A DNA stretch of 64,000 nt from Adineta vaga (Eukaryota; Animalia; Rotifera). Positions 15,657-61,939 of the stretch are shown piece by piece. Every line of letters begins with the position of its first letter. Positions within the stretch are counted from its first letter, which is position 1. The DNA is taken from assembly GCA_021613535.1 (NCBI GenBank), contig CP075495.1, positions 5,952,001 through 6,016,000 of the forward strand. The letters are read 5' to 3'. The notes beneath the pieces are model-generated. The model saw only the letters and a program-made list of their open reading frames with translations. It was not told the DNA's origin and did not search any database. The position numbers and the translations under genes are program-made.

Positions 15657-16129
15657 TTCTTTCTTTCTTTCTTCATTCATTTTGTATACATATACATATA
15701 CTTATACTTTCTCTCCCTCTCATGTTCGTTCGTTCGTTCGCTAATACTCACCGAATATTTGGCAGATATTTTTTAATAAGAAAAAAAAGAACAAAAATTT
15801 GTTTTGTAAGAAAGACGAAAAAAAAACAGTAGTAGTCATTTGGATCTTTGATATTGTCTTTTTGTGTTTGTTTTTGCACATCTAAAAAATCTAATAAAAA
15901 AATGCACGTGTTTCTTATATTGCAACTCGTCTTTTCTTGTTTTCTATTTCATTATGTATTCCATTCTATTCTCTCTCTGCTATGAATTCTTATGTTCAAT
16001 TTTTTTCTTCTTTCTTGCTTCGAATTGAATTGTGACACCTTTTTTTTCATAGTATGAAAAATAAAAGTTTATTACAAGAAATCAATTAGGATGGTTGAGT
16101 ATCACTTCTCTCTCTCTCTCTCTTTCCAG

Positions 16130-16798
16130 ATGGCTTCGACTAGTATACCATCAGAAAATGAAACTCCCATAGAAGATCATAGTACATTTCAAAATATCAT
16201 GCGCCATATCATGTCGGTGAAAGATCCACCGATTTCTATTCTACTTATTCGTCATCCCCCGGTACGCACTAGTATCGAAGCTTCAAATCAACGACAAGTT
16301 CCATTGCATAGTGGAGCAAAAGCAATGCTTGTCTGTCAAAAAAATACGGATCAATTTACATTAATTGTTCTTCCAGCTCATTTATCTTGTGATAATAAGA
16401 AAATTGCTGCAACTCTTAGTATACCATCATCAAAATTACGTATGGCTACTGAAGATGAAGTACGAAAAATTACTGGTTGTATACCTGGTGCTGTACCACC
16501 ATTTGGAGCTCTTTTTCCTCAAAATGTACGAACAGTAATAGATGAAAAAATGGCTCAATCAACGGCTCATCCTCCACCATTAACATTCAATCCACAAGTA
16601 ACATTATTTTCTACGAATGATTCTGAATGGCCAAATGATTTAGCTCAAGTTGCTTTACCAAAATTTACAGATCATGAACGAATTGATTGTATTAATTTTA
16701 ATATTGGTTTACGCACAATATCCTGTTCAATACCATTCAATGATTATTTGAGAATTTTAGGCGAGAACAATTATTCTATTTGTGATATTTCAAAATAA
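16130..16798 (+). CDS. YbaK/ProX-superfamily aminoacyl-tRNA deacylase, YeaK/ProXp-y-like, intronless CDS (alternative in-frame ATG at 16091)
   Basis: HPP-x-RTS-x-EA, GAKAML (family-conserved Lys), LIVLPA, TGCIPGAVPPFG (GxxxP loop), INFNIGLRTISCSIPFNDY. Confidence 0.85.
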   Translation: MASTSIPSENETPIEDHSTFQNIMRHIMSVKDPPISILLIRHPPVRTSIEASNQRQVPLHSGAKAMLVCQKNTDQFTLIVLPAHLSCDNKKIAATLSIPSSKLRMATEDEVRKITGCIPGAVPPFGALFPQNVRTVIDEKMAQSTAHPPPLTFNPQVTLFSTNDSEWPNDLAQVALPKFTDHERIDCINFNIGLRTISCSIPFNDYLRILGENNYSICDISK

Positions 16799-27489: not shown

Positions 27490-30400
27490 ATGAATATTGT
27501 TAGTCCTGAAAAACGTTATCAGGTATATTTGAGCATATTTTTTCATTTGACTTTATTCGATTGATTTTAGCCAACCTGTGACTTGAGTCCAGATCAAATA
27601 ATTAACCAACTGAATATTTGCTATCGAGTATGCTATAAATATACTCCAAATAAATCAAAGTAATATTCAACAATCTGATCTTTGTATACATTAATACGAA
27701 ACTCTATTTATTATAGTAAAGATGAGCAAGATCTTTGTCAATGTAATCATCCAAAGATGAAGCATAAAGATGAAACAAGTTCATCGAACAAAACTAAATG
27801 GAGTATGGAAAATAATACTAAAAGAAAGCCAAATTCAAAACATGGACCCGTCGTGAACGATGGAAAGGTAAATATAGAAAATGAACAATTTTGTTTTTTT
27901 ACTTAGTTTCATATATATTTCGGATTTAGTATGTTCAACTTGCTTTGGATACACCAGTAGAAATAGTAGAGAGAATTCTTCTTGAAGCGTGGAAAATTCC
28001 GAAACCTAGTTTTATTGTTTCGATTATCGGTGGTGTGGAATATTTTAAATTACATGATCGACTCGAAACGAATTTTATCAATGGAATTATTGATATTGCT
28101 CGGAAATCAAGTATATATCTAATCATACAATTCCACAGTAGTGATATTTATTTGAATGTCAATTTAGATGCATGGTTAATTACGACGGGTTATCGAGTTG
28201 GAATTGCTCAACTAGTTGGTGAAGCAATTAGTAAAGTTAAATATATGTACTTGGAAAATAAACAAATTACTGCTATTGGTTTATCCAAATGGGGTTGTAT
28301 CAGCAATCAAGACCAAGTCTTACGTTCAAAAGCTGATGATTTACAGGAGGTCTGGCCATATTAACCTCGCTAGATGACATAAACAAAACAACGGTTCTTT
28401 TTCTCTATAGAAAATTGAAGCATATATATCAAAACCTACGAGTAGGAAGAAACCAAAAACAGAACGTCTTAGCGGACAATATGATTTAGAAATGAATCAT
28501 AGTCATTATCTGATGTTAGATGATGGTACTATTCGTTCAGATGATACAGGAGATTATCGAACGCGATTAGCAGTCCATCTCGGAAGATTACAACGTAAAA
28601 ATGATGTTTTCAGTATGTATTTACTTTTTATTAAACGAAATATTAAGTACTTAAATAAGAAGTGAATACAGTGATATTTGAATTTCAAGTATAAACAATT
28701 CACAGTTATATCGTAAAGGAATACATAAAGAAAGAAAGTCATAAATAGTAAGTAAACACATCTATCGATAAAGAATATCAAAGGTTTCTTGGCAACAGAA
28801 TTCTCAAGATCGATAGATAGATTTAATTGTGAATGTATTTATTTAAATTTAGTACCAGTTGTCACATTAGTCGTCGAAGGAGGAAAAGATACTATAACAA
28901 ATATATATTATGATTTGAAATCCAATATCCCCGTTGTAATTGTTGATGTAAGACACTAGACGAATATGGAATTCTTTTTTTTAATAAGAAGCCATATATT
29001 AATACAATTAGGGTAGTGGAAGAGCGAATTTCTTGCACCAGTGGCTATTGAATACAAAAGAGCTTGATAATGATGCGGAAAATCGAACAAAAATTTATGA
29101 AATTAATGAATTAGAGGTGAAATATGAAGAAAATCATTCAAATCATGACTCTAATGCAGAATCAAGGTAGTTTTTATATGCTTTTCGTTGAACTCAATGA
29201 TATATTTATTATATAGTATTCGAAACTCTCAAGTTATTCATCTTTCTGGTTGTGAAAAGTTAGTTTTGAACATCGTATTCATTTCTTTGCTATTCGAACT
29301 TCTTCTAGACTTCTACAAATATTTAAAAACTATCGAGAACGATTAAAAAACGATTTGAAAAATGTTCTAATTTCAACTAAAGGTTCATCCAGCAGAGATA
29401 ATGAGGAATTCGAAACTTTAGTTAAACAGGTTATGTATTGTTTACAACCAGCTGTACGTTCGGATATTACAATATTCGATTTCAACTCTGATGGAAATTT
29501 ATCGGAAGCGATTTTTCGAAGTGTCTGTCGATGTAAGTTGAGATATAATTGATATTTGTTTCATCAAGTTATACTAAATATGAATTTATTTTAGCACGTC
29601 AAAAATTATCGAAAACAAAACGTATCGAATCGGGCGATTTATTTTCACACAGGCAACACCATAAATCTCATGATTCCATTTATCAAAAAGAACAAAATGC
29701 TGAACGATCACAGTTACTTGATGTAGCAATGGATTGGAATTGTATCGATGCAGCAAAAGAATGGATTTTCCGTGGAGCATTAGATAACATTTTGGTAATA
29801 CTACTGGTTTCATAATATAATATATATATACATTTCCTTTAGGATAAGCATCAAGCGTTTATCAATGCTTTACAAAAGAATTTACCATCATTTGTTTATG
29901 AATTTCTCAACTTAGGAATTGACCCAAGTGAAACATTTTTCGAAAAGAAAACACTTTCACAAGATAATCAATATAGAAAATTCCTTCGAACGTTATATAC
30001 ATCCAGAGAAGTGGTATGAAATCGATTCGACATTGACTACTTGTCGCAATAAACTTTTGTTTTTAGAATAGTGAAAAACGACATTTAAAATATTTCATTG
30101 ATGAAGATAGTGCAGTTAAAGGAAGAAAAATTGAATCTGTTGAAAAATTAAATATGATTCTTTCGACTCTCATTGATCATAAAATGCATAACCTATATTT
30201 CAATACATTGAACGAAGAAGCTCAATACCGAGAAAGATGGGGTTTATCAAAAATACCTAACAACAAATATCCGAACGAAAATGGTGATAGTGAACGTAAA
30301 AATTTATTCAAAGAAGAAAATAAAATTGATCACAAGGAAAGAATTCGAGATTACATTATGCGTGATTTGTTTCTATGGGCAATTCTTATGAATCATATTG

Positions 30401-32988
30401 AATTGGCAAAAGTCTTTTTAGCTCATATGAAATATCGAATATGTCCAGCATTGATCGCGACAAAAATTCTCAAACAATATTATCTAAAGGCAACTTACGG
30501 TGATCTTAAAACTAGTTATGAAACAAGTGCACACTATTTTGAACAATATGCTATCAATTGCTTGGATAAATGTGATAAATATGATCGTGTTAAAGCATGT
30601 GAAATAGTTTTACAACAAAATGAAGTCTATGGATACGTTACTTGCTTACAAGTTAGTTTCGATCGTAGTTCTTCCGAATAAAAATAATTATTATAATATG
30701 TTATTAGATTGCTGCAACTGCAGATGATAAAGATTTCATCGCCACTCCATGTTGTGTTCAAGCTCTCGATAATATTTGGTATGATAAACTATATCCAGAA
30801 CAAATGAAAAACTCTAATATAATATGGTTAATACTCGGATTTGTAACATGTGGTCTGGTGGCACCTGTATGTGTTACATATAGAGAAGGTGAAGAGGTTA
30901 GGATAAAAAACAAAATTATGTTGAGATTCGCATAATTGATTTTGTTAGAGAATAAAAATCGTTTTCGTAATCCATGAAGTTTTATTTTAGAAACCAAAAG
31001 GATTCGATCAAACATGCAGGAAGTAAAATATTCGGCCGTCAAAATAGGATAACGATGAACATATTAAGTTATCTCTTTAGATTAAAATCAAATGGATTGA
31101 ACTATTGCGAACCATTTCTGCTTGAATATCCACACGAATCTGTACCAAAACCAGCACATCGTCGTTATTTACCGAAATTAGCCAAATTTCATGAATCACT
31201 TCCTGTCAAATATAGTTATCATTTGGTTTGTATATGAATACAATTAAAACAGTTACTTCAAAACATACATCTCAATTGTTTTTAGATATCCTACAGTTTA
31301 TTTCTTCTACTTTTTTCCTATGTTCTTCTTTTTAACTTCTCGCCACCTACCGATAAGATTCCGTCAATACATTGGACTGAAATCTTAACTATTCTTCTAA
31401 TTCATTTCATGTTAGTTGAAGAAATTCATTTTGTGAGTATTTCTTTATTGTAAATCAGTCATGGTTTATCAATGAACTAATTTCTAGTTTGTCAATCAAG
31501 ATAGTTTACACTGGTCGGAAAAATTTAAAAACTATTTCAGTAGCTTTCTAAAACAAATGACAATGCTTGGCTTTTTATTTTTCTACATTGGATTAATTGT
31601 TCGATTTACCAACGTTGACTCGGAAGACAAATTTGTTGCAGCACGGTTTGTTTTTTTTTTCTTCCATTTGTATAAAATGACATACATATCTAAGTGTAGA
31701 GTGATTATGGCTATTGATCTGGAAATATGGTGGCTCCGTTCTTTATCATTTATTATTGTACTACCGTTTCTCGGACCTCATCTCGTTGCCATTGAAAAAA
31801 TGGTAACAAATATGTTCTTTTGATGTCTCTAAAATTGTTCTATTTCAATTTCTTACAGCTAAAAGATTTGATATTTTTCATTTGTATTATTGCAATTGTT
31901 ATGGCTGGTTATGGTGTCGCATCTCGTTCTATGACCTACTATCCAATAGTCAACAATTTCACTCAAGAAACAGGCGGCCCTATCGATGCTCGATTCGATG
32001 GTCGAAGTATTTTTCGTAACATTGCTTATCCTGTTTATTATCTCTTGTATGGAGAATTCGGCAATGAACTGAGTAGTCTAGATGGTATGTACACATAATC
32101 TAATAGATTTTTCAATTCTTATTTGTGATTGTATACGATTGAACAGATCATAGTGATGCTGGATGGTCGATTGCAACTCATGTGTTACTTGCTATTCATA
32201 TGATATTTGTGAATATTCTACTAACGAATCTTTTGATTGCTATTTTTAGGTACGAGTATTTGTTTGGAATCATTATATATATATATATATATATGTATGT
32301 AAATGAATATTGAGTATATTTTAGTAAACGATTTGATGAAGTCTATGAAGATACAAAAAAAATTTGGCATTATCAACAATATTGTTTTGTCCGTGATTAT
32401 TTTGTACGTTCACCATTTATACCTCCAATTAGTTTTATACACAATATGTATAATTTATGTCGAATGTTCGTCTTCTTTCTACTACAGCATTTTTCTGAAA
32501 ATAAATCGGGAGATCGTCGCATGAAAGTATTTAGTAAGTGTACAACAACAGTTTCTCAGTTTATTTTCATAAATTTCTTCCAGAAATGATCGCGAAAGAA
32601 AAGGCTCTGATAAAACAATGGCAACAATTCGAAGAATCATCAACATTTGAGTATGCTCACGATGAAGTGAAAATAGCAAAATCTGATTCGAACGGGTAAA
32701 TAAAAAAGAAAGATACTTTACTCTCTAAATATTAAAATGAATTTAGACCATCTAAAGGATCAGATACGTTTAATAAAGAAAACACGAAAGACATCATGAT
32801 CAAAGATAATACTACGAATGAAACATTGCATAATCTTCAACAGACACAAGATGATCTAATCGAATTGCATTGTATAATGGAAGAGGTAAAAACCAGACTC
32901 AATGATATACTAAAAGTAAATATTTGTTTATATAAATTAGATCATAAACTTTATGAGTATTCACTCTATTTAGCAAAAGAAACCATGA
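27490..32988 (+). CDS. TRPM-like cation channel, copy A (SLOG/MHR + 6TM + TRP box; no C-terminal enzyme domain)
   Basis: WKIPKPSFIVSIIGG, AWLITTG, LEMNHSHYLMLDDG, VPVVTLVVEGG, RDLFLWAILMN, LGPHL, pore YLLYGE, NILLTNLLIAIF, TRP box IWHYQQY..SPFIPP. Confidence 0.88.
31854..32240 (+). repeat. 387-bp near-identical duplicated segment (partner 37651-38037)
   Basis: By-eye comparison finds 4 mismatches in 387 bp, spanning an intron. Confidence 0.9.
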
Positions 32989-33487
32989 AACGAAATCATT
33001 CTTCTTGGCTCTCCTCTTCGATTGAAATTATCTTTTTACTAATCTAAACTAACTCCTTTGATGTAGCATTCATCTAATATGATTGACTTAGTTTCCAGAT
33101 ACCATTGTTCGATTTTTTCGAAATTCAAAATAAAAACTAAAATCATGATTTAAAACCAATGACTATATATATATGTATGACCTTCTATGAATATACCTAG
33201 GTGTTTGTTTATCTATAAATCAAATGGTTTCACTGATTTTATATTAAATTTTTTTTTTCGATAAATAAACTTTCTCATTTGCTTAATGAATTATTAGAGA
33301 AATATATAATGTTTATAAAAAATGACTGGAGCGACATTTAATTTCATATATTCATAACTTTCTCATTCATTATTTATAGAAGAAGGAAGACTTATAATGA
33401 ATGGTTCGTATATTATGGTACAATTCTCATACCAGATAAAATAACGAAGTAACTTTATCATAAGTTAACTTTACATAATTCGAATAA

Positions 33488-36400
33488 ATGTTGCCTTCTA
33501 TTTCATCAACTAAATATCGAGTATAAAACAAGTATAAATTAATAACACCAGTCGGATCTTTCAATTATTATAGGTTGCTAAACAATGTTTATCGACAGAA
33601 CATTCAAGTAAACCCGAACTTTACTACCGAGTTTGTACACAATTCTCTCCAAATAGGTTTTCTTTAATTTTTATTCTTATTCTTGAGTTCATTTGAATTT
33701 TCGGTTTTTCTCTTAGTGAAAATAAAGATGTCTGTGTATGCAATCAACCAGAACAATTCCATACAGAAAGAGAAAACGAATGGAAAAAATGGAGCATGCA
33801 AACTCATACTAAAAAGAAAAGATTTGACCATTCTGGTCGATTTTTGAACATTGATGCTTCCGTATAAAACTATTCATTGAATTATTCAATTTATTAACAA
33901 CTTTTAAAATAAATTTTTAGTTTGTTCGAATTGCACCAGATACGAAAATGAATGAAATTGAAAAACTTCTTCTGAAAACATGGAAAATTGCAAGACCTAA
34001 ACTAATTATTTCTATTATCGGTAGCACGAAATATTCTGATTTAACAGATCGATTGGAATCAGATTTAATTAATGGGATTGTTGATATTGCAACAAAACCA
34101 GGTATGATTCGAATTATCTACAAAAAAAACATATTTGAACTCTTTTTTCAAATAGATGTGTGGATGATTACAAATGGATATAATATGGATATTGTACGAC
34201 TTGTAGGACAAGCAATTAAGAAAAATAAATTAAAACAATCAAAACAGGAAATGATTGCGATTGGCATATGTAAATGGGGATGTATTAAAAATGTAGAATA
34301 TTTAACAGATTTCAAAGAAGAAGAAGAAGAAGAAACACAGAAGGTAGAATGTATATGTATCATAGATGTGATTCTGTACAGATGGATGCTTTATTAGCAG
34401 ATAAGAAGACATAGACTTAGTAATTTCGACAAAGATGAAGGAGAAAAATACTGCAAAGGTGGTCAATACGAACTTGAAATGAATCATAGTCATTATTTAA
34501 TGTTAGACGATGGACGATATGGATATACGGATACGGAAGATTTTCGAACGCAATTATGTTGTCGAATGGTAAATCTCGATGATAATGATAAATCATACGG
34601 TAGATTAACAATAAATTAGATTCTTTACTTCTGTTGTTTTATTTCTAGTACCGGTTGTTACGCTCGTCGTAGGAGGAGATCTCAATACTATAGAAAACAT
34701 TTATTATGATTTAAGTAACAATATACCTGTTATTATTACTATCGTAAGATCGTATAAAAGTCAATCAATTTTAATTCTGATTAATTTAACAAAAACGATA
34801 GGGCAGTGGACGAATTTCTCAATTTTTCACTCGTTGGTTGAAGTATACTAAACGATTTGATGATCTATCGGAAGAACGTAAAATACTATATGAAATTAGT
34901 GAATTGAAGGAAAGCAAAATGAAATCTTCCCATTTACGAGCTCATAATGTTATTATCGATAGAGATAGGTAAGATCAACTTTCTAACAATGTTTTTTTTG
35001 TCTTATTCTTTGAATTATAACAGAACGATTGTTTATACTAATTTATACCTGGATCGTTCAGTAACAAAGTAAATGATGGGTTTTCCATTTCTAAAAATTG
35101 ATTGATATATTTATGTTTTTCTTTTACTAAAGACTTGATGAGTTGTTTAAAGATTATAAGAAACACTTGCAAGATGATTTAAGATATACTCTTTATGGTG
35201 AAGATGATTCGGATACTCGAAACGATACTTGTGAAAATCGACTATTTTCTAAAGCAGTTCAACAAGTTCTATTTTGTCTTCAACCATCTGTTCGTCATAA
35301 TATTACCATATTTAGTATAAATTCAGAATATAATTTTTCTGAAACATTGTTCAGAAGTATCTGTACATGTAAGTAAATAACAGTAAAATATCTGTATTTA
35401 TTTTCACTAAGTTTTTTGTAGCTTATGAAACATTTACAACAATTAAAGAAAAACGACTTGAAGAAATCACTTCGCTTCGTCAAATTGCTGATAGAGAAAA
35501 TCAAAATGATGGAAAATTAAAATTACTTGAATTAGCAATGGATTGGAATTGTATTGAAGTAGCCAAAGAATTTGTTTTACAAAATTCTCTACATAACATA
35601 TCGGTATCAGTTATCTACATTGTCAATTTCTATGTTCATATATTTTGTATGTTTAGAATCAAGAAGAAACATTTATTAAAGCTCTTACAAATAATCTACC
35701 TTATTTTATCTATGAATTTATTAAACTAGGTATTGATCCAGGAGAAATCTTCTTTCCAGGAGATACATTTAGTCGATCATCTGAACGATATGATAAATTC
35801 ATAAAAGTTTTATACAATAAACAAATTACGGTAAGTGATAAATATGAAAAATATTGTAAGTTGTTTATTTTTATTTTGGTAGAAAAATGCTGAATCACGC
35901 CTTCAGTCTTTTATTGACGACAATGGGAAGTTAGCTAACAAAGCAATCGATTCTACCGATGCACTCAATGTTATTCTTCGTGTTCTTATTGGTGATTATA
36001 TGCATGAACTGTATTTCGATGGATATCAAGGAGAATATTTGAAACGAATAGAATCTGGCTTAAAGAAACCGATCAAACCTAAAATTGATGATGAATCGAT
36101 AACTTTTCCATTTCCATCAAATGAAATGGCCAAAGAACTTGCACAAGATTACATTATGCGTGATTTATTTCTATGGACTATACTTATGAATTACATTGAA
36201 ATGGCAAAAGTCTTTTTATCTCATATGAAATATCGAGTATGTCCAGCATTAATCGCGACAAAAATTCTCAAACAATATTATCACTATGAAACTCATGAAG
36301 ATATTCGAATTATTTATAAAAATAATGCAAATTATTTCGAAAAATATGCTATTAATTGTTTACGTGAATGTGTTGAGCATAATGCAGAACGAACATGTAA

Positions 36401-38703
36401 AATTATTTTACAACAAAATGAACTCTATGGATATGTCACTTGTTTACAAGTAGGTTTCGATCGTATGTTTTTTTTAACGAATAGCTGCTTAATATGCATG
36501 TAGGTTGCGGCTGACGCAGAAGATAAATTATTTATTGCTTCTCCATGCTCTGTTCAAGCAATGAACAATATTTGGTATGATCAACTCTATCCTGAACAAA
36601 CAAGAAAACGTGATATCATAGCATTGAGTGTCGGATTTGCGACTTTTGGTCTAACAGCACCTGCATCCGTTTCATATAGAGAAATAGCTGGAGTAAGATT
36701 AGTTTTCGATATTGAAAATAGTATGAAACAAATGAAAAATTTTGATTATAGGGTCGTGATGGTGAATCTTTGAAGCAAATGTATGTCTATGAAGTGCACC
36801 ATAAGAAATAATACGTTTGTTTTGTTAATTTAGTTTACGATCAAATGGCATTACTTATTGTGATTCATATCCACTTCAACATCCGCCCATTTCTGATTCA
36901 GCTTCTGCATTAAATCGTTATCTCCATCGATGGAAAAATTTTCATCTATCATTAATGATGAAATTTTGTCATCATTTTGTATGTATAATTAGAATAGGGA
37001 AACATGTCATAAGATGAACAATAAACTGTTTTTGTTTTAGATATTCTATTGCTTATTTCTTCTATTTTTTTCCTACTTTCTTCTATTCAATTTTTCACCA
37101 CCAACGAATACAGTTCCATCAATTCACTGGACAGAAATTATTACAATTATTTTTGTTACTGGAATGTTAATTGAAGAAATACGTTTTGTGAGTATAGTTT
37201 GAGTTGAATAACGTTTATTTTCATTTTGTATTATGATTATTTCAGTTCTTCATTCAAGCAAATCTTACTTTCATTGGAAAACTCAAAAATTATTTCAGTG
37301 ATCTGTTTAAAATGATGACTTGGCTTGCATTAATACTTTTTTACATCGGATTAATTGTACGATTTACATATGCAGATTCAGAAGAGAAATTTATTGTTGC
37401 AAGGTAAGAAAATAAGTTTGTTTTATTGTCTAAATTTCATTCTACGACACAGTTGATGTAAACAGAATACACAAAAATACTCTTCTTTATTCACAGAGTA
37501 ATCATGGCTTTCGATATTGAATTGTGGTGGTTACGATTCTTGTCCTTCATTATTGTTCTACCATTTCTCGGACCTCATCTTGTTGCTATATCGAAAATGG
37601 TATTCATTCTATTTCCAATATTATTTGAAAATCATTTTATTCTAATTTTTTACAGCTAAAAGATTTGATATTTTTCATTTGTATTATTGCAATTGTTATG
37701 GCTGGTTATGGTGTTGCATCTCGTTCTATGACCTACTATCCAATAGTCAACAATTTCACTCAAGAAACAGGCGGCTCTATCGATGCTCGATTCGATGGTC
37801 GAAGTATTTTTCGTAACATTGCTTATCCTGTTTATTATCTCTTGTATGGAGAATTCGGCAATGAACTGAGTAGTCTAGATGGTATGTACACATAATCTAA
37901 TTGATTTTTTAATTCTTATTTGTGATTGTATACGATTGAACAGATCATAGTGATGCTGGATGGTCGATTGCAACTCATGTGTTACTTGCTATTCATATGA
38001 TATTTGTGAATATTCTACTAACGAATCTTTTGATTGCAATGTTCAGGTAAGATTACCTTTATTTGCGATTATAATATATGGATGCTAAGTGTATTGTAGT
38101 AAACGATTTGATGAAGTTTATGAAGATACGAAAAATATCTGGCATTCTCAGCAGTATTTGTTTACGCGTGATTATTTTTTACGTTCACCATTTTTTCCTC
38201 CAATAAATCTTGTGCAAGATTTATTTTCTCTACTTAAAATGGTCTGTATCTTTTTGATAAAACTTAAAATTGATCGCGAGCCTTCAAAACTAAAACGAAA
38301 AGTGTTCAGTAAGTGTGCATGGATTAGTGTTTATTAATTTCGACGATTTTGTTTTTGCTAGAAATAATTCCCAAACATGAACCACTTATGCGAAAATGGC
38401 GTGATTTTGAAGCTGCATCAACATATAAATATGCTCATGATGAAGTAAAAGCATCCAAAGTATCGGCAGCAAAGTAAGTCTATAAAAAAATACAGAATAT
38501 TTCGAGGAAGAATATTATTTAGATTGTACAATGGACTAGATTCAAATGAAGTCAAAACGGGAGAAGACATAATTAACAAGGATGATAATTCCAATCATAT
38601 GGCGAATAGCGTAAAACAAGTTCAAGATTGTTTGTTAGAGTTGAATCCATTATCTCAAGAAATAGTTGGGCTACTCGAAAACTATACAACCAATAGAACA
38701 TGA
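33488..38703 (+). CDS. TRPM-like cation channel, tandem copy B
   Basis: Same motif order and largely shared intron positions with copy A: WKIARPKLIISIIG, LEMNHSHYLMLDDG, RDLFLWTILMN, YLLYGE, IWHSQQY..SPFFPP. TGA at 38701-38703. Confidence 0.88.
37651..38037 (+). repeat. 387-bp near-identical duplicated segment (partner 31854-32240)
   Basis: Same comparison as the partner segment. Confidence 0.9.
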
Positions 38704-38828: not shown

Positions 38829-39052
38829 GTTGCACAATCGACATGAATATATCAATGACGTTATTTAATGTTTGCTATACTGAATCCTTGAATAGATCGA
38901 ACACTATTATATTGAGTACATAACACGATCTTATCAAGCACTTGATTTGTTATTGCGAAATGACATTCTCAATGTAATTTCGTAATTTCTCACCGACGCA
39001 AAAGAACGGTCTTTCGCAATTACCTCTATACGATACATTCAAGTATAAAAAG
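38829..39052 (+). promoter_or_regulatory. Putative promoter of the eEF2 paralog: C/EBP-like bZIP motif cluster + TATA box
   Basis: GTTGCACAAT 38829, ATGACGTTAT 38855, ATTGCGAAAT 38952, ATTTCGTAAT 38977, CTTTCGCAAT 39011, TATAAAAAG 39044. Confidence 0.5.
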
Positions 39053-39175
39053 CGTACGAGAATTGTTGTATCTCCATTCTTTCACATTCTATGCTAATAC
39101 AAAGGTAGTATTTCATTCTATCAATCAAGCAAATTCTTTGATTTTTTATCAAATCTTACGCGTTCACCGTTCATT

Positions 39176-41849
39176 ATGGCAAGACAACGTTCCGAAGCTG
39201 TGGCAGAGACTATGTCCAAGCCGCATAATATACGTAATATGTGTGTTATTGCACATGTTGATCATGGTAAATCAACATTGACCGATGCATTAGTGTATAA
39301 AGCTGGTATTATTACCGAACAACAAGCTGGTCAACGACGATTTACTGATTCATTAGAAGCAGAACAAGAAAAAGGCATAACAATCAAATCATCGGCTGTT
39401 AGTATGTTCTATGAATTAGATGATCAAATTCTTGGTATGTAGTTTATGAGAAAGGCTGAACTCTCTTTAGAAGGATATATATTCATATATTTTGTATAGG
39501 TGATTTGAAACGGGACGGTAATGGATTTCTAGTCAATCTCATCGATTCTCCAGGTCATGTTGATTTTTCATCAGAAGTTACAGCTGCTTTACGTGTAACT
39601 GATGGTGCATTACTGGTTGTTGATGCTGTCTCAGGAGTATCTGTACAAACTGAAACTGTTCTTCGACAAGCTCTTTCTGAGCGTGTACAATTAACCTTAA
39701 TTATTAACAAAGTTGACCGTTGTATATTGGAACAAAAGGTAGAACCGGAGGAACTCTATCAAAAATTATCGGGTATCATTGCACGATGTAATGCATTGAT
39801 TGCAACTTATCGAAGTACTGATGATGCTATTTATTCGGATGAACATTTCAATCCAAAAATAGGCAATGTTGCTTTTGCTTCTGGTAAACATGGTTGGGCA
39901 TTTACCATTCCTCAATTTGCCACGTTTTTGGCAGAAAAAACGAAAGCAACAAAAGAAAAATATATGGATCGCTTATGGGGTGAATCATACTATTCATCAT
40001 CGAGTAAGAAATGGTTGTCCTATGAACAATCAAGATCATCTGATGATGCTAAACGTGGTTTTACTCAATTTATCCTTCAACCACTCTATCAAATCCTCAA
40101 TGCATGTGCCGATTTAAATATGGAAGAAGTTCGAACATTATTGTCGAAAATCGATGTTAAATTAACGCCTGACAAACTTGATGCAAGTATTCTCGATAGT
40201 AAAACAATTACGTCCAATGTAATGAAACGTTGGTTACCAGCTAGTGAAGCTATGTTACATTTAATTGTGCTTCATCTTCCATCACCTGTTCAAGCACAGG
40301 TTTATCGTATTCAACATTTATACGAAGGACCTCAAGATGATCAAGTCGCATGTGCAATGAAAGCTTGTGATCCTAAAGGTGATGTCATGGTCTATATTAG
40401 TAAGAAAATTCCAGCACAAGATGGATCTCGTTTTCTTTGTTTTGGTCGTATCTTTTCTGGTACAATTGTTTCGGGTACTAATGTTCGTATTCTTGGTCCT
40501 GATTTTCAACCCGGTTCAAATACTGATCTACAAATTAAAAATGTCACAAATGTTGGTGTTATGGTTGGTGATCGTTGTATTTCTATGAATAGTGTACCAG
40601 CGGGTAACGTTGTTGCATTAACTGGTATCGATAAATGTTTATTAAAAACAGCAACAATTACAACAAATGCTGAAGCACATAATTTTCGTGTAATGAAATT
40701 TTCTGTTAGTCCTGTCGTACGTGTTGCAGTTGATGTTAAAGATCCAGCTGATCATGCTAAACTTGTTGATGGTTTGAAGAAATTAGTTCAAGCTGATTCA
40801 CTTGTACAAGTTTTGAATGAAAATGGACAACAAGTTATTGCTGCTGCTGGTGAATTACATTTAGAAATCTGTTTAGCTGATCTAGAAAAAACACATGCAC
40901 GTTGTCCATTAAAAGTTGCAACACCTATTGTTACTTATCGTGAAACGATTATTGCAGAATCACGACAAACAGCATTCACTAAAACAACAAATAAACATAA
41001 TAAATTCTTTATGCGTGCTTTACCATTAGAAGAAGGTTTAGCTGAAGCAATTGAATCAGGTCGCATATCATCGAAACAAGATCCAAAAGTAAGATCCAAA
41101 ATTTTAGTTGAAGAATTTGGTTGGGATTTACCTTCAACGAAGAAAATTTGGGCTTTTGGACCACACGATAATGGTCCAAATATACTTGTTGATGCAACTA
41201 AAAGTGTTGATGGTCTGAGCAATATTCAAGATGCTGTTGTTGCTGCTTTTCAATGGACGACTCAAGAAGGTGTTGTAGCATCAGAAAATCTTCGTGGTGT
41301 ACGAATTGAATTATTAGATGCTGAAATTCATCGAGATTCAGGTATGATAAATTATATTTTTCAATTAAAAAACGACAAAAATTTAAATATTTGTTTTTTC
41401 CTCTTTTTTTAGCTCATCGTCGACCTGATCAAATCATTCCAGCTATTCGTCGATGTCTCTTAGCTAGTTTACATATGGCTCAACCACGTCTTCTTGAACC
41501 TATATTTTTGGTTGATATTGAATGTCCAACACGTATGATCGGTAAAGTTTATTCAACATTAAATAAACGTCGTGGTCAAATCAGTGAAGAGAATGAATTA
41601 CAAGGTACAACTTTAACTCGTATCAAAGCCTATCTACCAGTAAATGAATCATTCGGTTATACCGAAGAATTACGTCATGCAACAAGTGGTACAGCATTTC
41701 CTCAATGTCAGTTTGATCATTGGGCTATCTTACCTGGTGAACCATTTGAAATCAATACCAAATGTGGTCAAATTGTTAGTGAAATACGACAACGTAAAAG
41801 CTTATCTGAACAAATTCCTACCATAGAATCACTTGTCGATCGACAATAG
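39176..41849 (+). CDS. eEF2: Divergent eukaryotic elongation factor 2 paralog, 845 aa (exons 39176-39434, 39500-41341, 41413-41849)
   Basis: G1 [16 protein letters not shown]3 DSPGH, G4 NKVD. eEF2 signatures [49 protein letters not shown]. Length and absence of EFL1/Snu114 insertions match eEF2. Confidence 0.95.
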
Positions 41850-41925
41850 ACTTAAATCAATTTTCCTTTTCTTTTCTTTCCCAGTCTTTTCTTTATATAT
41901 CGATAAGGAAACAAAACAATAAAAA

Positions 41926-44239
41926 CTAAACATCAGTACCGAAATCTGATCTCATAACATGAAAATGTGGTAATAATGTTACTTTCGTTGTTAATTCAGG
42001 TGCATGAAATTTTTCTACAATTGATACGGATGATGTTGGTCGATCTAAATTCATTGTTGGATCGATTGTCTTCTGTTTCCTTCGATAACATAAGAAAATA
42101 ATAATTAAAATCAAGATAAAACAAATAAAAGAAAGAATAATAATTAAAATTATTAAAATAACTTGTTCAGAATATTTTTCTTCTTCAATCAAGGCAATCG
42201 ATGATCGAATCATTCGCGGAGTCGAACTAATTAATGGTGTCCAAAGACGTATTTCATCTGAAAGACTACGATATATTGTCGTACGATTTTTTGTTGAATC
42301 AAAATCAATAAGTATAAGACGATAGGAGATTTGACCAGTTATATTATGAATAATACCTAGGAGAATGGCTGCATTAGAAATTGGTGTTGTACTTGTAGGA
42401 GGTAAAAATTGAAATAGAAGAGAACGAGATTCGCTTGTAAATAACATCGATCCAAATTTAGAATCTAAAATAATCGAAAAGAAACGTAATTCATTCAAAA
42501 CTAGAATAATATAAATTTATACATGATATGATTGTTGCTAGACTATCTGTTACAGTAACAGTATGATTTCGTTGTTGACCTGATGCGATGAATCTCATAA
42601 CTTCATAACCATTTTGACGACAATTTGAATAACATTCTGGTTGACGTTTGGATGTACATGTACATAATGTACAATTATTCAATGGAAGATAAGATCCTTC
42701 CTATGATAGAAATAGAATTTCTTCTAATTTTTCTTTTGTTTTTACCTTAAAAATATAACCATTCAAATAGCATTGTTTCGGTTGTCGACATGATATACAA
42801 CAACTATCCGATCGTGATTCTTGAATTTCATTTTCCAAACAAAATTGATGTTCACATTGAATACTTTTACATATAATTCGATTATGTCGTCGACATGTAC
42901 AATATTGACATGCTGATGTATACCAAATATCATGTTCATAATAGATTTGATAACCTTTATTACCATAGAATCGACAAACATGTCGATTACTACATATTGA
43001 ACAACAACTATTTGGTAAACGAATTAGTTTTTCATTCTAAATACAAATTAATAGAAACGATTGTAAAAATCTTTTTGAAAATTAATCATTTCACATACAG
43101 ATTTACATTGTAAGATTGGACATGTTTCTTCTGTACATATAGTTAATCCATTTTGACAACGGCAATGTGTACAATTACTTTTTCGACTCCAAACATCACC
43201 ATTCTAAATCATGCATGAAATAGAAAAGTTTGTTTTTATTTTCCTTGTTTTCTATCACTAAATTAGTCATCACTTTACTTGATAAATAAGACCTGCTTGA
43301 TCATGACAAACAGTTGCTCGACATACTGGACAACATTGACCTGGAATGAATTGAAGCGACTAGAAATCAATATATTTAGTGTAATAGAAACTGAAGATTC
43401 ACATTCAATCATTCCTACTTCACGACAAGTTTTTATGATTGGACATTGTTTAATGTAGCAAATTGATGACACATTTTGTTTGGATGCTGGTTGTATACAT
43501 TGGCATATGATACATGGTAACGGTGACCAGACAGAATTTAGTTCATGAAATTCATTATCAAATAAACATTTGTCTACTAAAATTAACAAAAAGTATTTGT
43601 TTAACAAACAGAAGAAAAAAACGAAATGTTTCATCTAAAATAAACAAACTCGATAATTACTTTGTGAAATGGATGGACGACAGATATTATCACAAAATAG
43701 TTGACCATCTCGACAACGACATTGAAGACAGGATTCGGGATAGAATATTGTATTATGCTAGATAGGAGAAAAATAAAAATGAGTAAGCAATGAAAAACAA
43801 CATATTTGTTTACGTACAAGGATAGCAGTACCATCATAGAGACAAGAACGTCGAACTGATGCACATATGGGACAACAGGAACCTGTTTTAATTGTTAATT
43901 GTTCACCCTAAATGTAATTTTATATTTGTTTAATATTTAAAATAAAATTTTATTCTCCTACCATTCGACAATCTTTCGATAATTGACATGTTCGATTTCG
44001 ACAAATAATAATCTGATTTGGTAAACATTTACATGTTTGACAAGACTCTCCTAATGTCCATTCAGTATTAATCTTAAATAAGTAAAAACAAAACTTTGTC
44101 TATGATTGATTTAGCGATCACTTCTATTTATCTTTACCGGATAAGTCGTAGAATTATATTCACATCCAAATTGATTTGTATGAATAGTATTCAATAAAGA
44201 GAAAATTAATAGAAGTAAAAGAAAAACTTGTGATAACAT
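41926..44239 (-). CDS. Type I membrane protein with multiple VWC (chordin-type Cys-rich) repeats, kielin/CRIM1-like
   Basis: Signal peptide MLSQVFLLLLLIFSLL; repeated W..CxxCxC..CxxxxC..CCxxC exons; TM VILIILIIILSFICFILILIIIFLCY-RRK; C-terminus GTDV. Confidence 0.8.
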
Positions 44240-57901: not shown

Positions 57902-60900
57902 CTAAAAACCATAATTCCATTTTGCTTCTTGTGCTACTTGTCTTACAGTATAGCAAATAATTTGGTCACCTTTTTGAAATTTAATGTCATGATTTGCAAA
58001 TGACAAACCGCATTCAGCACCTTTCCTTACTGATTGTACATCATCACGAACATGTTTCAATGATGATAAAGTATCTATTCAAAGAAAATAATTTTAGTTT
58101 TTTTCTACAAAATAAAGTAAAAAAAGTAATTTATTTGTACCTCGGTGAATAATTTGTCCATTACGAATGAGTTTAAATAATTGTTTTTTTTCTAAAATAC
58201 CATCTGTAACACGACAACCAGCAACAGGAATCTTCTTATTACGTTCATTGATATCAAATGTTTGTAAAACATCAGCACAACCGGTTTGAACATCTTCTTC
58301 TGTTGATGGAATACGTTTTGTTAATTCATCTTTGATATCATTTAACATATGATAAATAACATTAAATGTACGAATAGGAACATGTTTTCGACTAGCTTCA
58401 AGTGCTATTGTTTGATTAATATTTGTATTAAATGCATAGATTGTAGCTACGAAGAAAAACTAACAAAGTTTAGTTCAAGATGATTGATTTATGTAATTAA
58501 AAGCATTGAAGTAGAATTATTTCGTATTAATCATGGATGATGTGATACTTTAAGGGTTGATTTAATCCATGTGTCAAGATATACATCGATTGAATTATTC
58601 CTATAGAAGTAATCAACCAATTTATTCTTAATTTTATCATCTATCTTTATTCGTGAATGAGTTCTATTAGACTATACAAACCATTGAAAAGTTCAGCTGC
58701 TTCTAAATCATCTTCATTAACAGAACCAACAGCAGCATCAATTACATCCAATGGACATCGCGTATCATTGTACATATTAATAATCTTTGTTAATGCTTCC
58801 AAAGTACCAAAAACATCCGCTACAATAGATTTGAGATTGTACATCATTGGATTAATTAACTATATATGTCAACTTACTTTTAAGTAAAATAGAATATTTT
58901 AGTTTTTCTTCTTTATCTTCTATATGTTGACCTGAACCTTTATCACGTTTACGAAATATAATACCTAATTCTCGACGACGTTGAAGTTCTGCGCTATAAG
59001 AACAAAAGCAAGAACTTTTCTTCATTCAGTAAATATTTTCTGTTTCCTAACCGATATTTTTGTAAATGTTCTTCATGTTTTTGTGTTACAGCAACAACAT
59101 CAATTTCCATTTTCTTTGCAGTTTCATCTGCTTTACGTTGAGTCGCAATTCGATTAGCTAAATTCTATTTCAATTACAAAGAAAAACATTTTTCTTCTAT
59201 GTAACATACGAAAGAATCGAATCTTACTTCACTTTCAATTTCAAAGACTTCATCACCAGCAACTGGTAGCGTTTTCCATCCTGTTACTTGTACCGGCATA
59301 CTTAAAGTTGCTCGTTCGATTCGAACACCACGTTCATTATATAAAGCACGAACCTTAATGAATAGAAACGATTGAATCGTTAGAACAAACATTAATCGTC
59401 TCGAGATAAAACATACTCTTGCAACACTTTGACCAGCAAGTAGAATTGTACCTTTTTTCAAAACGCCACGTTGAACAAGAACAGTCGCAAGATTTCTGCA
59501 GAAGAAAAATAAACAACCGATAGATATCATATCGACCGATAAGTTCTTACCATCCAAGGTTCGCTCACCCCTTCCGTTGATTGCTATCGAATGTATTCTC
59601 ATTCTCTTCTGTATCTTCTTCATGTTTAGATTCGAGTATAGTACCTTCAACCGGACCAGTTGGATCACCATGCAATTGTTGTTGTTCAGCAACAGCTAAG
59701 ATGGATTCCAGTAATTTATCAATATTAATATTCTATAAAATACAATTTTATTAAAAAACAAAAAAGGAACGTTAGATTTAAATCTTTACTTTCAATGCTG
59801 AAATCGGTACACCAACAACATCACCACCAATGGATTCAAGTTGAATTCCATGTTCGGCAAGCATACTTTCCGTTCGTTTCTGCAATAGATACAAAACAAA
59901 CTATCAAACATAGAACTATTTTGATTTGTTTATCTTACGATGTTTGAATCAGCTTTATCAATTTTATTGATAGCAACAACAATCGGAACTAAACAGATTT
60001 GTTGTAAATTTCTTGTTCGAATGAAATAAGTCACGTATTACCTTTTGCTCTATTTGCATGCGCAATACTTTCTAATGTTTGAGGCATAACACCGTCGTCT
60101 GCAGCAACAACAAGAACAACGATATCTGTGACTTGGGCACCACGAGCACGCATTTCTGCAAAAGCTAAATGTCCAGGTGTATCAATAAATGTAATAGTCA
60201 TCGATTTGGATACAGGGACTAAAATAGGATTGAACAGTATAAAATACATCATATTACAGGATCATCAAACTAACCAATAAAGGCACCAATATGTTGTGTT
60301 ATTCCTCCAAATTCTCCTGAAACAATATTACTATTTCTTAATGCATCTAACAGACTAGTTTTTCCATGATCGACATGACCCATAATTGTAACAACAGGTG
60401 ATCGAGGTTTCAATTTCTCTTTCGATGGCATAGGTCTATCGAGAAATAAATACTTTCATTATTCTCTTTTCGAATCTAATGAAGTATAAACATACGTTCG
60501 AACAAATTTGACAACATTTGCTGTCCCCTTCTTTTTATCATTGGCAAATGGTGATGGAATAAGTCGATGTTTTCCACCACATAAATGCACAACTTCAACA
60601 ATAACATTAAAATCATCAATTTCTAAAATATAATCATATGATTAAAAAGATTCGAATCGACCTAAACTTCACAAACCTTGATTATCAGATGAATATTGAT
60701 CACCATTTTTTATATGAATAAGACAATCATATATATGATCTAGTGATAATATTTTCAATAGAATATCAATAAGGAAAAGAAGACGAATGAAAACATACCA
60801 ACATCAATACCCATTGCTTGAGCAAGTGCTTTGATTGTCATTTTATGATAGATTTCTATTATTGGTCGTTTACTTTTTGGACCATAAGATACTGGCTAAA

Positions 60901-61160
60901 TATAGAGAATGATGACCGTTATCGAGAGAGTATGGGTGTGATATATGTTTACAAACTTGATATTTTTTATTAGTCTTAGTAGATTTGGAATGAAAACGTA
61001 TAGAATAGACAGATACATGGGACGATGTTCGAGGTAAGAGAGTAAACATATTTCTGCGCTGTTGGTTTACATGGAACAAATTAAGAGGAGAAGTAGTTAG
61101 TCGTTGTTGGCAGGAACGACATAGCGTCATAGTCGATTTGAATAGAAATCGACCGATCAT
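57902..61160 (-). CDS. MTIF2: Mitochondrial translation initiation factor 2 (multi-exon)
   Basis: Presequence; [62 protein letters not shown]. Confidence 0.93.
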
Positions 61161-61939
61161 TTTATCTAAAATAGATTCATTGAATACTTAGTTGCCATGC
61201 TATCTTACACAAACTGTACACTATTCGTCACACTAGAGTTTATTTGACTTCTCTTATATTTAATCATAATAACATAGTACTGTGTATAGTTTTATCGATT
61301 ATCAGTTTAACAATACAATCTAACTGAAAAATACACGAACATCTTTGTTTCATTCATCTGCAAAAGTAATAAATCTCTAATGGAAGAAAAGATTAATAAA
61401 AATGATCGTTTTTATTCTTTCTATGGAATGAATTGTATTTTATTGATTTTTATTGAGTATATATAGAGATACACTATAGAACTATACAAATACAGAAAAA
61501 AAAGAAAGAAGAATAACAAGGTAAATAGTCAATCAATCAATCAATTAGTTAATAAATCGAGAAAAGAAAAGCAGAGAAGTAGAAGCAAATATGATTTGAT
61601 TAGATGAAAATAGAACAAGTTTTTTGATTGTGCTGAGAAAGTTCACAACGTCGTTAATTAAAAGATATTCTTTCTCAGAAATATATACTTTGAGAATGAA
61701 AAAAAGAGAAAAAAAAATAATCACCATCCGCAAATAAGAATAGAGTATTGGATTTTTTTTGACATATTAAATTAACAAGACAATGGAATGTGATTATTCG
61801 CTTTTTTTCATTAGAGTGAAGTATAAAACACTGTTGAGCTAATGCGAAAAGAAACGAAACGTTCTTTTTTTTTTATTTCATGCATATTGATTATAGTCTA
61901 TTGAATTAGGTAACACGCGCACACGTACACACATACATA

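Follow-up and report, generated by a model that had tools for sequence, protein, structure and literature searches.

An elongation factor 2 with an altered diphthamide loop is transcribed and conserved in bdelloid rotifers and belongs to a spiralian-wide clade

Introduction

Diphtheria toxin, exotoxin A and cholix all act on diphthamide. To our knowledge, this modification is near-universal on animal elongation factor 2 (eEF2). The substitution G717R blocks its synthesis. The 64-kb stretch of Adineta vaga DNA analysed here, hereafter the window, contains an eEF2-like gene that encodes an Arg at this position. What might such a gene be for? An initial annotation, made from the DNA letters alone, proposed a backup factor that lacks diphthamide and defends translation by target replacement. 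In the open-access literature, to which our search was confined, we found no description of a loop-altered eEF2 paralogue in an animal.

Results

The gene has three exons and is transcribed

The gene lies on the forward strand. Exon 1 (39176..39434), defined from the sequence and spliced contigs, starts with ATG and encodes the G1 motif AHVDHGKST and an altered switch I. It is followed by a 65-base GT..AG intron (39435..39499). Exon 2 (39500..41341) encodes the G domain, G', domains II and III, and most of domain IV (Pfam GTP_EFTU, EFG_III and EFG_IV). The second intron (41342..41412; 71 bases) interrupts the diphthamide loop. Exon 3 (41413..41849) encodes the tip of that loop, domain V (Pfam EFG_C) and the stop codon. 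When joined, the three exons form a single open frame of 845 amino acids with one stop.

The second intron was a prediction of the initial annotation. We compared it with contigs from four runs; X1, X5 and X6 represent three studies, and the RNA status of the runs is a guess. Contigs of X1, X5 and X6 have a precise 71-base gap at 41342-41412. The first intron is also spliced out in the X1 and X5 contigs. In one of the four runs (X15) the contig carries the eEF2 copy unspliced. Around this intron, 14 GT/GC..AG combinations keep the frame, and 41342-41412 alone restores the eEF2 loop register. The 13 others break the register, and none is present in the contigs. The spliced contigs from public runs show that the gene is transcribed, as the proposed role assumes. 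A spliced X1 contig has its 5' start at 39093. One X6 contig has a loose poly(A) end at 41944, which delimits a 3' untranslated region (41850..41944, forward strand). Runs X22 and X23, from the same study as X6, contain 0.03-0.04 of the words, compared with 0.35 in X6, and are no evidence either way.

The loop is split by an intron at the same position in loci L001, L002, L006, L007 and L008. Loci L003 (3001-5538) and L004 hold an intronless orthologue with an open frame of 845 codons and conserved promoter and neighbours. Both introns have been lost in this one bdelloid lineage.

The product is an eEF2

The protein is approximately 51% identical to canonical eEF2 (yeast Eft1/2, PDB 1N0U; human EEF2), which provides the best PDB matches by sequence and by fold. 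It shares with these proteins its length, the five-domain fold, the histidines of the loop and the lysine of loop 2. Pfam and alignment recover the domain order of EF-G/EF-2 proteins, and the alignment shows that the G1, G3 and G4 motifs are intact, as the initial annotation had stated. It differs from canonical eEF2 in its degree of identity, in HRRPD for HRGGG, in I714A and P596T, in Asn for the loop 3 Glu, and in switch I.

EFL1 and Snu114 were rejected as identities by bit scores, Pfam and fold matches. The Adineta steineri orthologue, P0002, scores 975 bits with eEF2, 573 with Snu114 and 419 with EFL1, in agreement with the initial annotation as an eEF2 paralogue. The top 29 fold matches to its AlphaFold model (pLDDT 81.5) are all eEF2 entries. 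EFL1 proteins have approximately 1100 amino acids with insertions; the rotifer copy has 845, and its PF25118 score, 25 bits, falls below the cut-off of 30.9.

All three loops of domain IV are altered

Narrowe et al. (10.1101/262600) defined three loops in domain IV and a bridge between E660 and R702. Loop 1 of the rotifer copy reads HRDSA-H702-RRPDQ. The canonical signature is HxDxxHRG, for which the rotifer has HRDSAHRR. At the tip (41415..41429, forward strand), the target histidine H702 is retained and is followed by R-R-P-D, the equivalents of G717R, G718P and G719D. In an alignment with insect eEF2 numbering the changes are I700>A, G703>R, G704>P and G705>D; these correspond to I714A, G717R, G718P and G719D in the human numbering of the initial annotation, which had identified them correctly. 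H696 and H701 (insect numbering) are retained; in the alignment, the rotifer copy keeps H697, H702, R703 and K585.

The other loops have changed too (S581T, P582T and E660N, insect numbering), a point that the initial annotation had overlooked. Canonical loop 2 reads SP(H/N)KHN. Here, SPNKHN is replaced by TTNKHN (40984..41001, forward strand), with the Pro lost and the Lys retained. In loop 3, the equivalent of Glu660 is Asn. Changes in switch I are T59S, R60L, D62A and R66K. Altogether, 74 of the 324 columns that are near-invariant in canonical eEF2 have changed, switch I included.

Some of these substitutions have been studied elsewhere. The earlier statement that G717R gives resistance to DT-A is supported by PMC4616595. 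G717R also stands in for diphthamide and rescues loss of DPH1 (PMC11053169). The initial annotation named G719D as a further resistance allele; passages of PMC3009735 gave no confirmation. In yeast, I698A (equivalent to I714A) and P580H are −1 frameshift mutants (PMC6193676). Fidelity could suffer from the changes in loops 2 and 3, judging from sequence. Because these columns include switch I, the Pro of loop 2 and the Glu of loop 3, translocation may be impaired.

Might the protein have left routine translocation altogether? It could be a ribosome-binding GTPase that acts on stalled or damaged ribosomes in rescue, repair or dormancy, a role proposed for the archaeal paralogue aEF-2p. Such a role would fit the numerous fixed substitutions in switch I, in domain III and in loops 2 and 3, as well as the long stem branch of the bdelloid copies (length 0.98) and the disturbed reading frame of the yeast I698A and P580H mutants (PMC6193676). 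However, the protein retains its GTPase motifs along with H702, H697 and K585, whereas aEF-2p has lost its loops, and G717R is itself functional (PMC11053169). We regard this explanation as unlikely.

The copy is conserved in bdelloids under purifying selection

The best 120 matches to the exon 2 protein comprised 36 at 70-93% identity, followed by eEF2 at no more than 53%. The named sequences in the first group come from Adineta ricciae (93%), A. steineri, Rotaria and Didymodactylos. Twelve of these bdelloid-type matches have a spliced loop of the HRRPDQ type, 23 are unspliced calls that end at the same intron and one is divergent there. R704, the equivalent of G717R, is present in all 12 orthologues tallied, even with overall identity down to 70%. 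Two proteins of Rotaria sp. Silwood1 have HRRDDQ, so fixation is stricter for the Arg than for the Pro; one further model gave no match.

Substitution rates were estimated (Nei-Gojobori) from nine of 19 metagenome loci, after exclusion of one duplicate, two short pieces and seven non-orthologues. In all nine comparisons of the window with a locus, dN/dS was 0.09-0.18, so the purifying selection that a working gene predicts is present. Values of up to 0.44 were obtained for close pairs of loci with low dS. The genes on either side, TRPM-like (upstream) and VWC (downstream), are found again next to orthologues. The divergence from canonical eEF2, at approximately 51% identity, might suggest a duplicate decaying under neutral evolution. 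Against this stand the low dN/dS, the fixed loop, the conserved neighbours and promoter, and the spliced transcripts; we give decay next to no chance. A pseudogene is refuted by the same dN/dS values of 0.09-0.18.

Some other features of the window were apparent. Two tandem TRPM-like channel genes lie immediately upstream (27930-38703, forward strand). Downstream, a transmembrane protein with several VWC repeats is encoded on the reverse strand (41926 to about 44100 and beyond). Its stop codon is located ~77 bases from that of the eEF2 gene, within the eEF2 3' untranslated region. An intronless open reading frame with an aminoacyl-tRNA editing (tRNA_edit) domain is present at 16058-16798 (forward strand).

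Related copies occur in molluscs and annelids

Searches with a divergent hit and with an alignment recovered loop-altered eEF2 from Capitella, Crassostrea, Patella, scallops, Solemya, Mercenaria, Mytilus and hemichordates. We built a tree of 31 rows with loops 1 and 2 masked; its sampling left aside rotifer canonical eEF2, EFL1 and Snu114. The bdelloid, annelid and mollusc copies form one clade (support 100/99), apart from the canonical eEF2 of annelids and molluscs. Pecten and Argopecten were assigned to the clade by alignment and an earlier tree. Forcing the bdelloids together with canonical spiralian eEF2 was rejected (p-AU 0.006). The length of the bdelloid stem makes branch attraction a risk. 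Among 357 invariant columns, 19 are changed in both the bdelloid and the annelid/mollusc group, where 6.5 are expected, and this excess counts against an attraction artefact. Thirteen of the 19 have changed to the same residue, and eight of those 13 lie outside the loop. The bdelloid copy is part of a spiralian-wide clade of loop-altered eEF2, which the initial annotation had not recognised. We also considered a horizontal origin and found nothing in its favour: the copy clusters with sequences of animals.

The mollusc and annelid members, entered as 'elongation factor 2-like' for Crassostrea, Pecten, Mizuhopecten, Argopecten, Patella, Solemya, Mercenaria, Mytilus and Capitella, bear only generic automatic names. 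They share the clade and derived residues with the rotifer copy. They differ in their loops (HxDPAHR[RK]GAQ, HxDPxCR[RK]GGQ or HxDPSHRGG) and in a G1 motif with GKTT. Across 16 non-bdelloid members (annelid, mollusc and unnamed), the G717 position is R or K in 11 and G in five, and the target His is Cys in three. Mytilus entries also retain G717. Hence, escape from toxins is not universal to the clade.

Hemichordate copies were tried as members. They joined the clade at 96 in an unmasked tree and separated once the loops were masked; we therefore take them to be independent. Ptychodera and Glandiceps (P0048/P0343 and P0339/P0161) each have a canonical eEF2 plus a copy 73-74% identical to it. 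These altered copies lack two residues of the diphthamide loop and apparently arose independently. These two hemichordates are the only organisms with both eEF2 types among the matches listed. Another non-canonical copy is P0067, a yeast-like eEF2 with the loop HRDSVHRGGNQ.

Is there a canonical eEF2 in bdelloids?

We saw no canonical bdelloid eEF2 among the best 120 matches per search, for which divergent queries were used, or in cluster and Atlas look-ups. The window holds no second eEF2. Its second EF-G-like match was discarded as a mitochondrial IF2-like gene (Pfam EF-G_D2; about 58000-61200, reverse strand). A diphthamide synthase gene model of the DPH6 type (PF01902/K06927) is reported for A. 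vaga in the supplement of PMC12220480. DPH1, DPH2 and DPH5 do not appear among the rows listed of that supplement. In Crassostrea gigas, an eEF2 serves as a housekeeping gene (PMC7488030).

Bdelloids might have this eEF2 only, adapted to diphthamide loss as in parabasalids. The matches listed, with no canonical bdelloid sequence among them, agree with this, and G717R is able to replace diphthamide (PMC11053169). However, the lists hold only the best 120 matches to divergent queries, and A. vaga has the PF01902/K06927 synthase model. Furthermore, an AU test rejects a placement with the canonical eEF2 of annelids and molluscs (p 0.006), and parabasalids were the only eukaryotes without dph genes among 168 surveyed (10.1101/262600). 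A sole bdelloid eEF2 is very improbable in our assessment; a canonical eEF2 is presumed in bdelloids.

The promoter contains conserved C/EBP-like candidate sites

Upstream of the gene, a candidate TATA box (39044..39050, forward strand) was identified from the sequence and is aligned in six related promoters. The promoter alignment also revealed three C/EBP-like candidate sites, TTRCGAAA, within 38953..39019 (38953 on the forward strand; 38978 and 39012 on the reverse strand). The promoter can be aligned across six related loci, including the TATA box and the TTRCGAAA sites. All seven related loci have two to four such sites no more than 300 bases before the ATG. Pooled over the seven loci, of which two are near-identical, 18 of the 20 matches fall within 300 bases of the ATG; the pattern was chosen after viewing the alignment. 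The window as a whole is not enriched (11 matches compared with 9.4 expected), and three of the 11 fall within 38953-39019.

The pattern is similar to NTTDYGAAAH, the motif of C. elegans CEBP-1 (PMC5141650). That published motif gives a weaker signal, with two matches in the promoter, a number reached in 16 of 300 shuffles; at least two matches occur in nine of 213 tiles of the window. In C. elegans, CEBP-1 is part of ToxA surveillance and is a negative regulator of protection (PMC5143455).

Elongation-factor genes are induced in infected Adineta

Published data for Adineta infected with Rotiferophthora set the induction threshold at >4-fold (PMC11258130). We interpreted the sheet names of the GO workbook as species and time points (7 h or 24 h). 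Among the induced genes of both Adineta species, the term 'translation elongation factor activity' is enriched; the elongation-factor genes induced are 11/60 and 20/60 in A. ricciae, and 6/48 and 9/49 in A. vaga (PMC11258130). For A. ricciae at 7 h, the top term is 'Translation factor activity' (26/230, FDR 4.6e-10; PMC11258130). The main text and preprint of PMC11258130 do not mention elongation factors. Two induced genes, g35357 and g51143, are annotated as GTP-binding and have low values (1.7 and 1.2) in another condition (PMC11258130). Terms for GTP binding, ribosome binding, elongation and defence to Gram-negative bacteria are attached to A. ricciae g14780 and g34671 (PMC11258130). None of the induced ids was matched to the rotifer copy or its clade, whether directly or through neighbouring ids. 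The GO set of g14780 and g34671 fits an eEF2 and is presumably the C. elegans EEF-2 annotation. We know of no use of diphthamide toxins by the fungal pathogen with which these genes were induced. In molluscs, clam 'Elongation factor 2' rises by log2 2.5-3.8 after Vibrio (PMC9125321), and an oyster 'elongation factor 2-like' is induced by acidification (PMC9498863); both are unmatched to the clade.

The induced set also includes eIF5A-like genes, genes of the eEF1 complex and RNA ligases, according to GO terms (PMC11258130). This co-induction would suit an inducible alternative translation kit directed against ribotoxins, small-molecule inhibitors, eEF2-binding effectors or abiotic stress, with a loop change unrelated to ADP-ribosylation. 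The distribution of changes over all domains, the retention of HRGG by some clade members, and the acidification response of the unmatched oyster protein (PMC9498863) point the same way. Yet the loop change coincides with a substitution known to confer resistance, and R or K is found again at this position in other phyla. Such a kit is a rather unlikely explanation.

Two A. vaga genes with the automatic label NAD+-diphthamide ADP-ribosyltransferase, g29963 and g54161, are induced by the fungus (PMC11258130).

A further possibility is self-immunity: the rotifer would induce an ADP-ribosyltransferase on infection to attack fungal diphthamide, and this eEF2 copy would protect the animal from its own enzyme. 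Genes with the term GO:0047286 are induced (2/2 in A. vaga at 7 h and 1/1 in an A. ricciae table; PMC11258130). However, that label is automatic, and the mollusc and annelid copies are left unexplained; we consider self-immunity improbable.

Discussion

We judge the odds to be about even that the transcribed, conserved, loop-altered eEF2 of bdelloids is an inducible, diphthamide-independent backup translocase, used when microbes inactivate a presumed canonical eEF2. The promoter sites and the induced elongation-factor genes of unmatched identity favour a defence role, though indirectly. The Arg beside H702 would block diphthamide formation and, with it, ADP-ribosylation by enzymes of the exotoxin A type. 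The same Arg might replace diphthamide in the decoding centre, like engineered vertebrate G717R. On sensing of infection or of blocked translation, the C/EBP-like promoter sites could activate the gene. The copy may translocate with lower fidelity, given the I714A and P596T equivalents, and this would explain a reserve rather than a housekeeping role.

Engineered mammalian eEF2 G717R carries the same substitution adjoining the target His. By contrast, the rotifer Arg is natural, is fixed in bdelloids and stands amid more than 70 other changes in conserved columns. The aEF-2p proteins of Asgard archaea and Korarchaeota are likewise divergent EF-2 copies that retain the GTPase motifs and have a modified domain IV (Narrowe et al., 2018). 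However, aEF-2p has lost the His as well as loop 2, and most of its hosts lack dph genes (10.1101/262600), whereas the rotifer copy retains both His and the Lys (H702, H697 and K585) and is nested in eukaryotic eEF2. In parabasalid eEF2, the same glycine is substituted (G703N) as a proposed replacement for diphthamide (10.1101/262600). That protein is the bona fide factor of organisms that lack dph genes. In the rotifer copy, the residue is Arg, the protein belongs to a paralogue clade and A. vaga has a DPH6-type gene.

A broader proposal is that spiralians (rotifers, molluscs and annelids) have kept an infection-inducible, diphthamide-free eEF2 since their common ancestor. This eEF2 would replace the toxin target as part of a switchable, attack-resistant translation kit that includes eIF5A and eEF1 paralogues, and would amount to immunity by translation-factor swap. 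We put this forward tentatively, as a possibility that may well not hold.

The rotifer gene is a natural animal copy with a laboratory resistance change, conserved across phyla that include farmed oysters, scallops and clams. If the backup role is true, defence by target replacement would operate within the core translation machinery. It would also provide a handle on why diphthamide persists despite being a liability, since in one animal with both versions of eEF2 the trade of fidelity against resistance could be measured.
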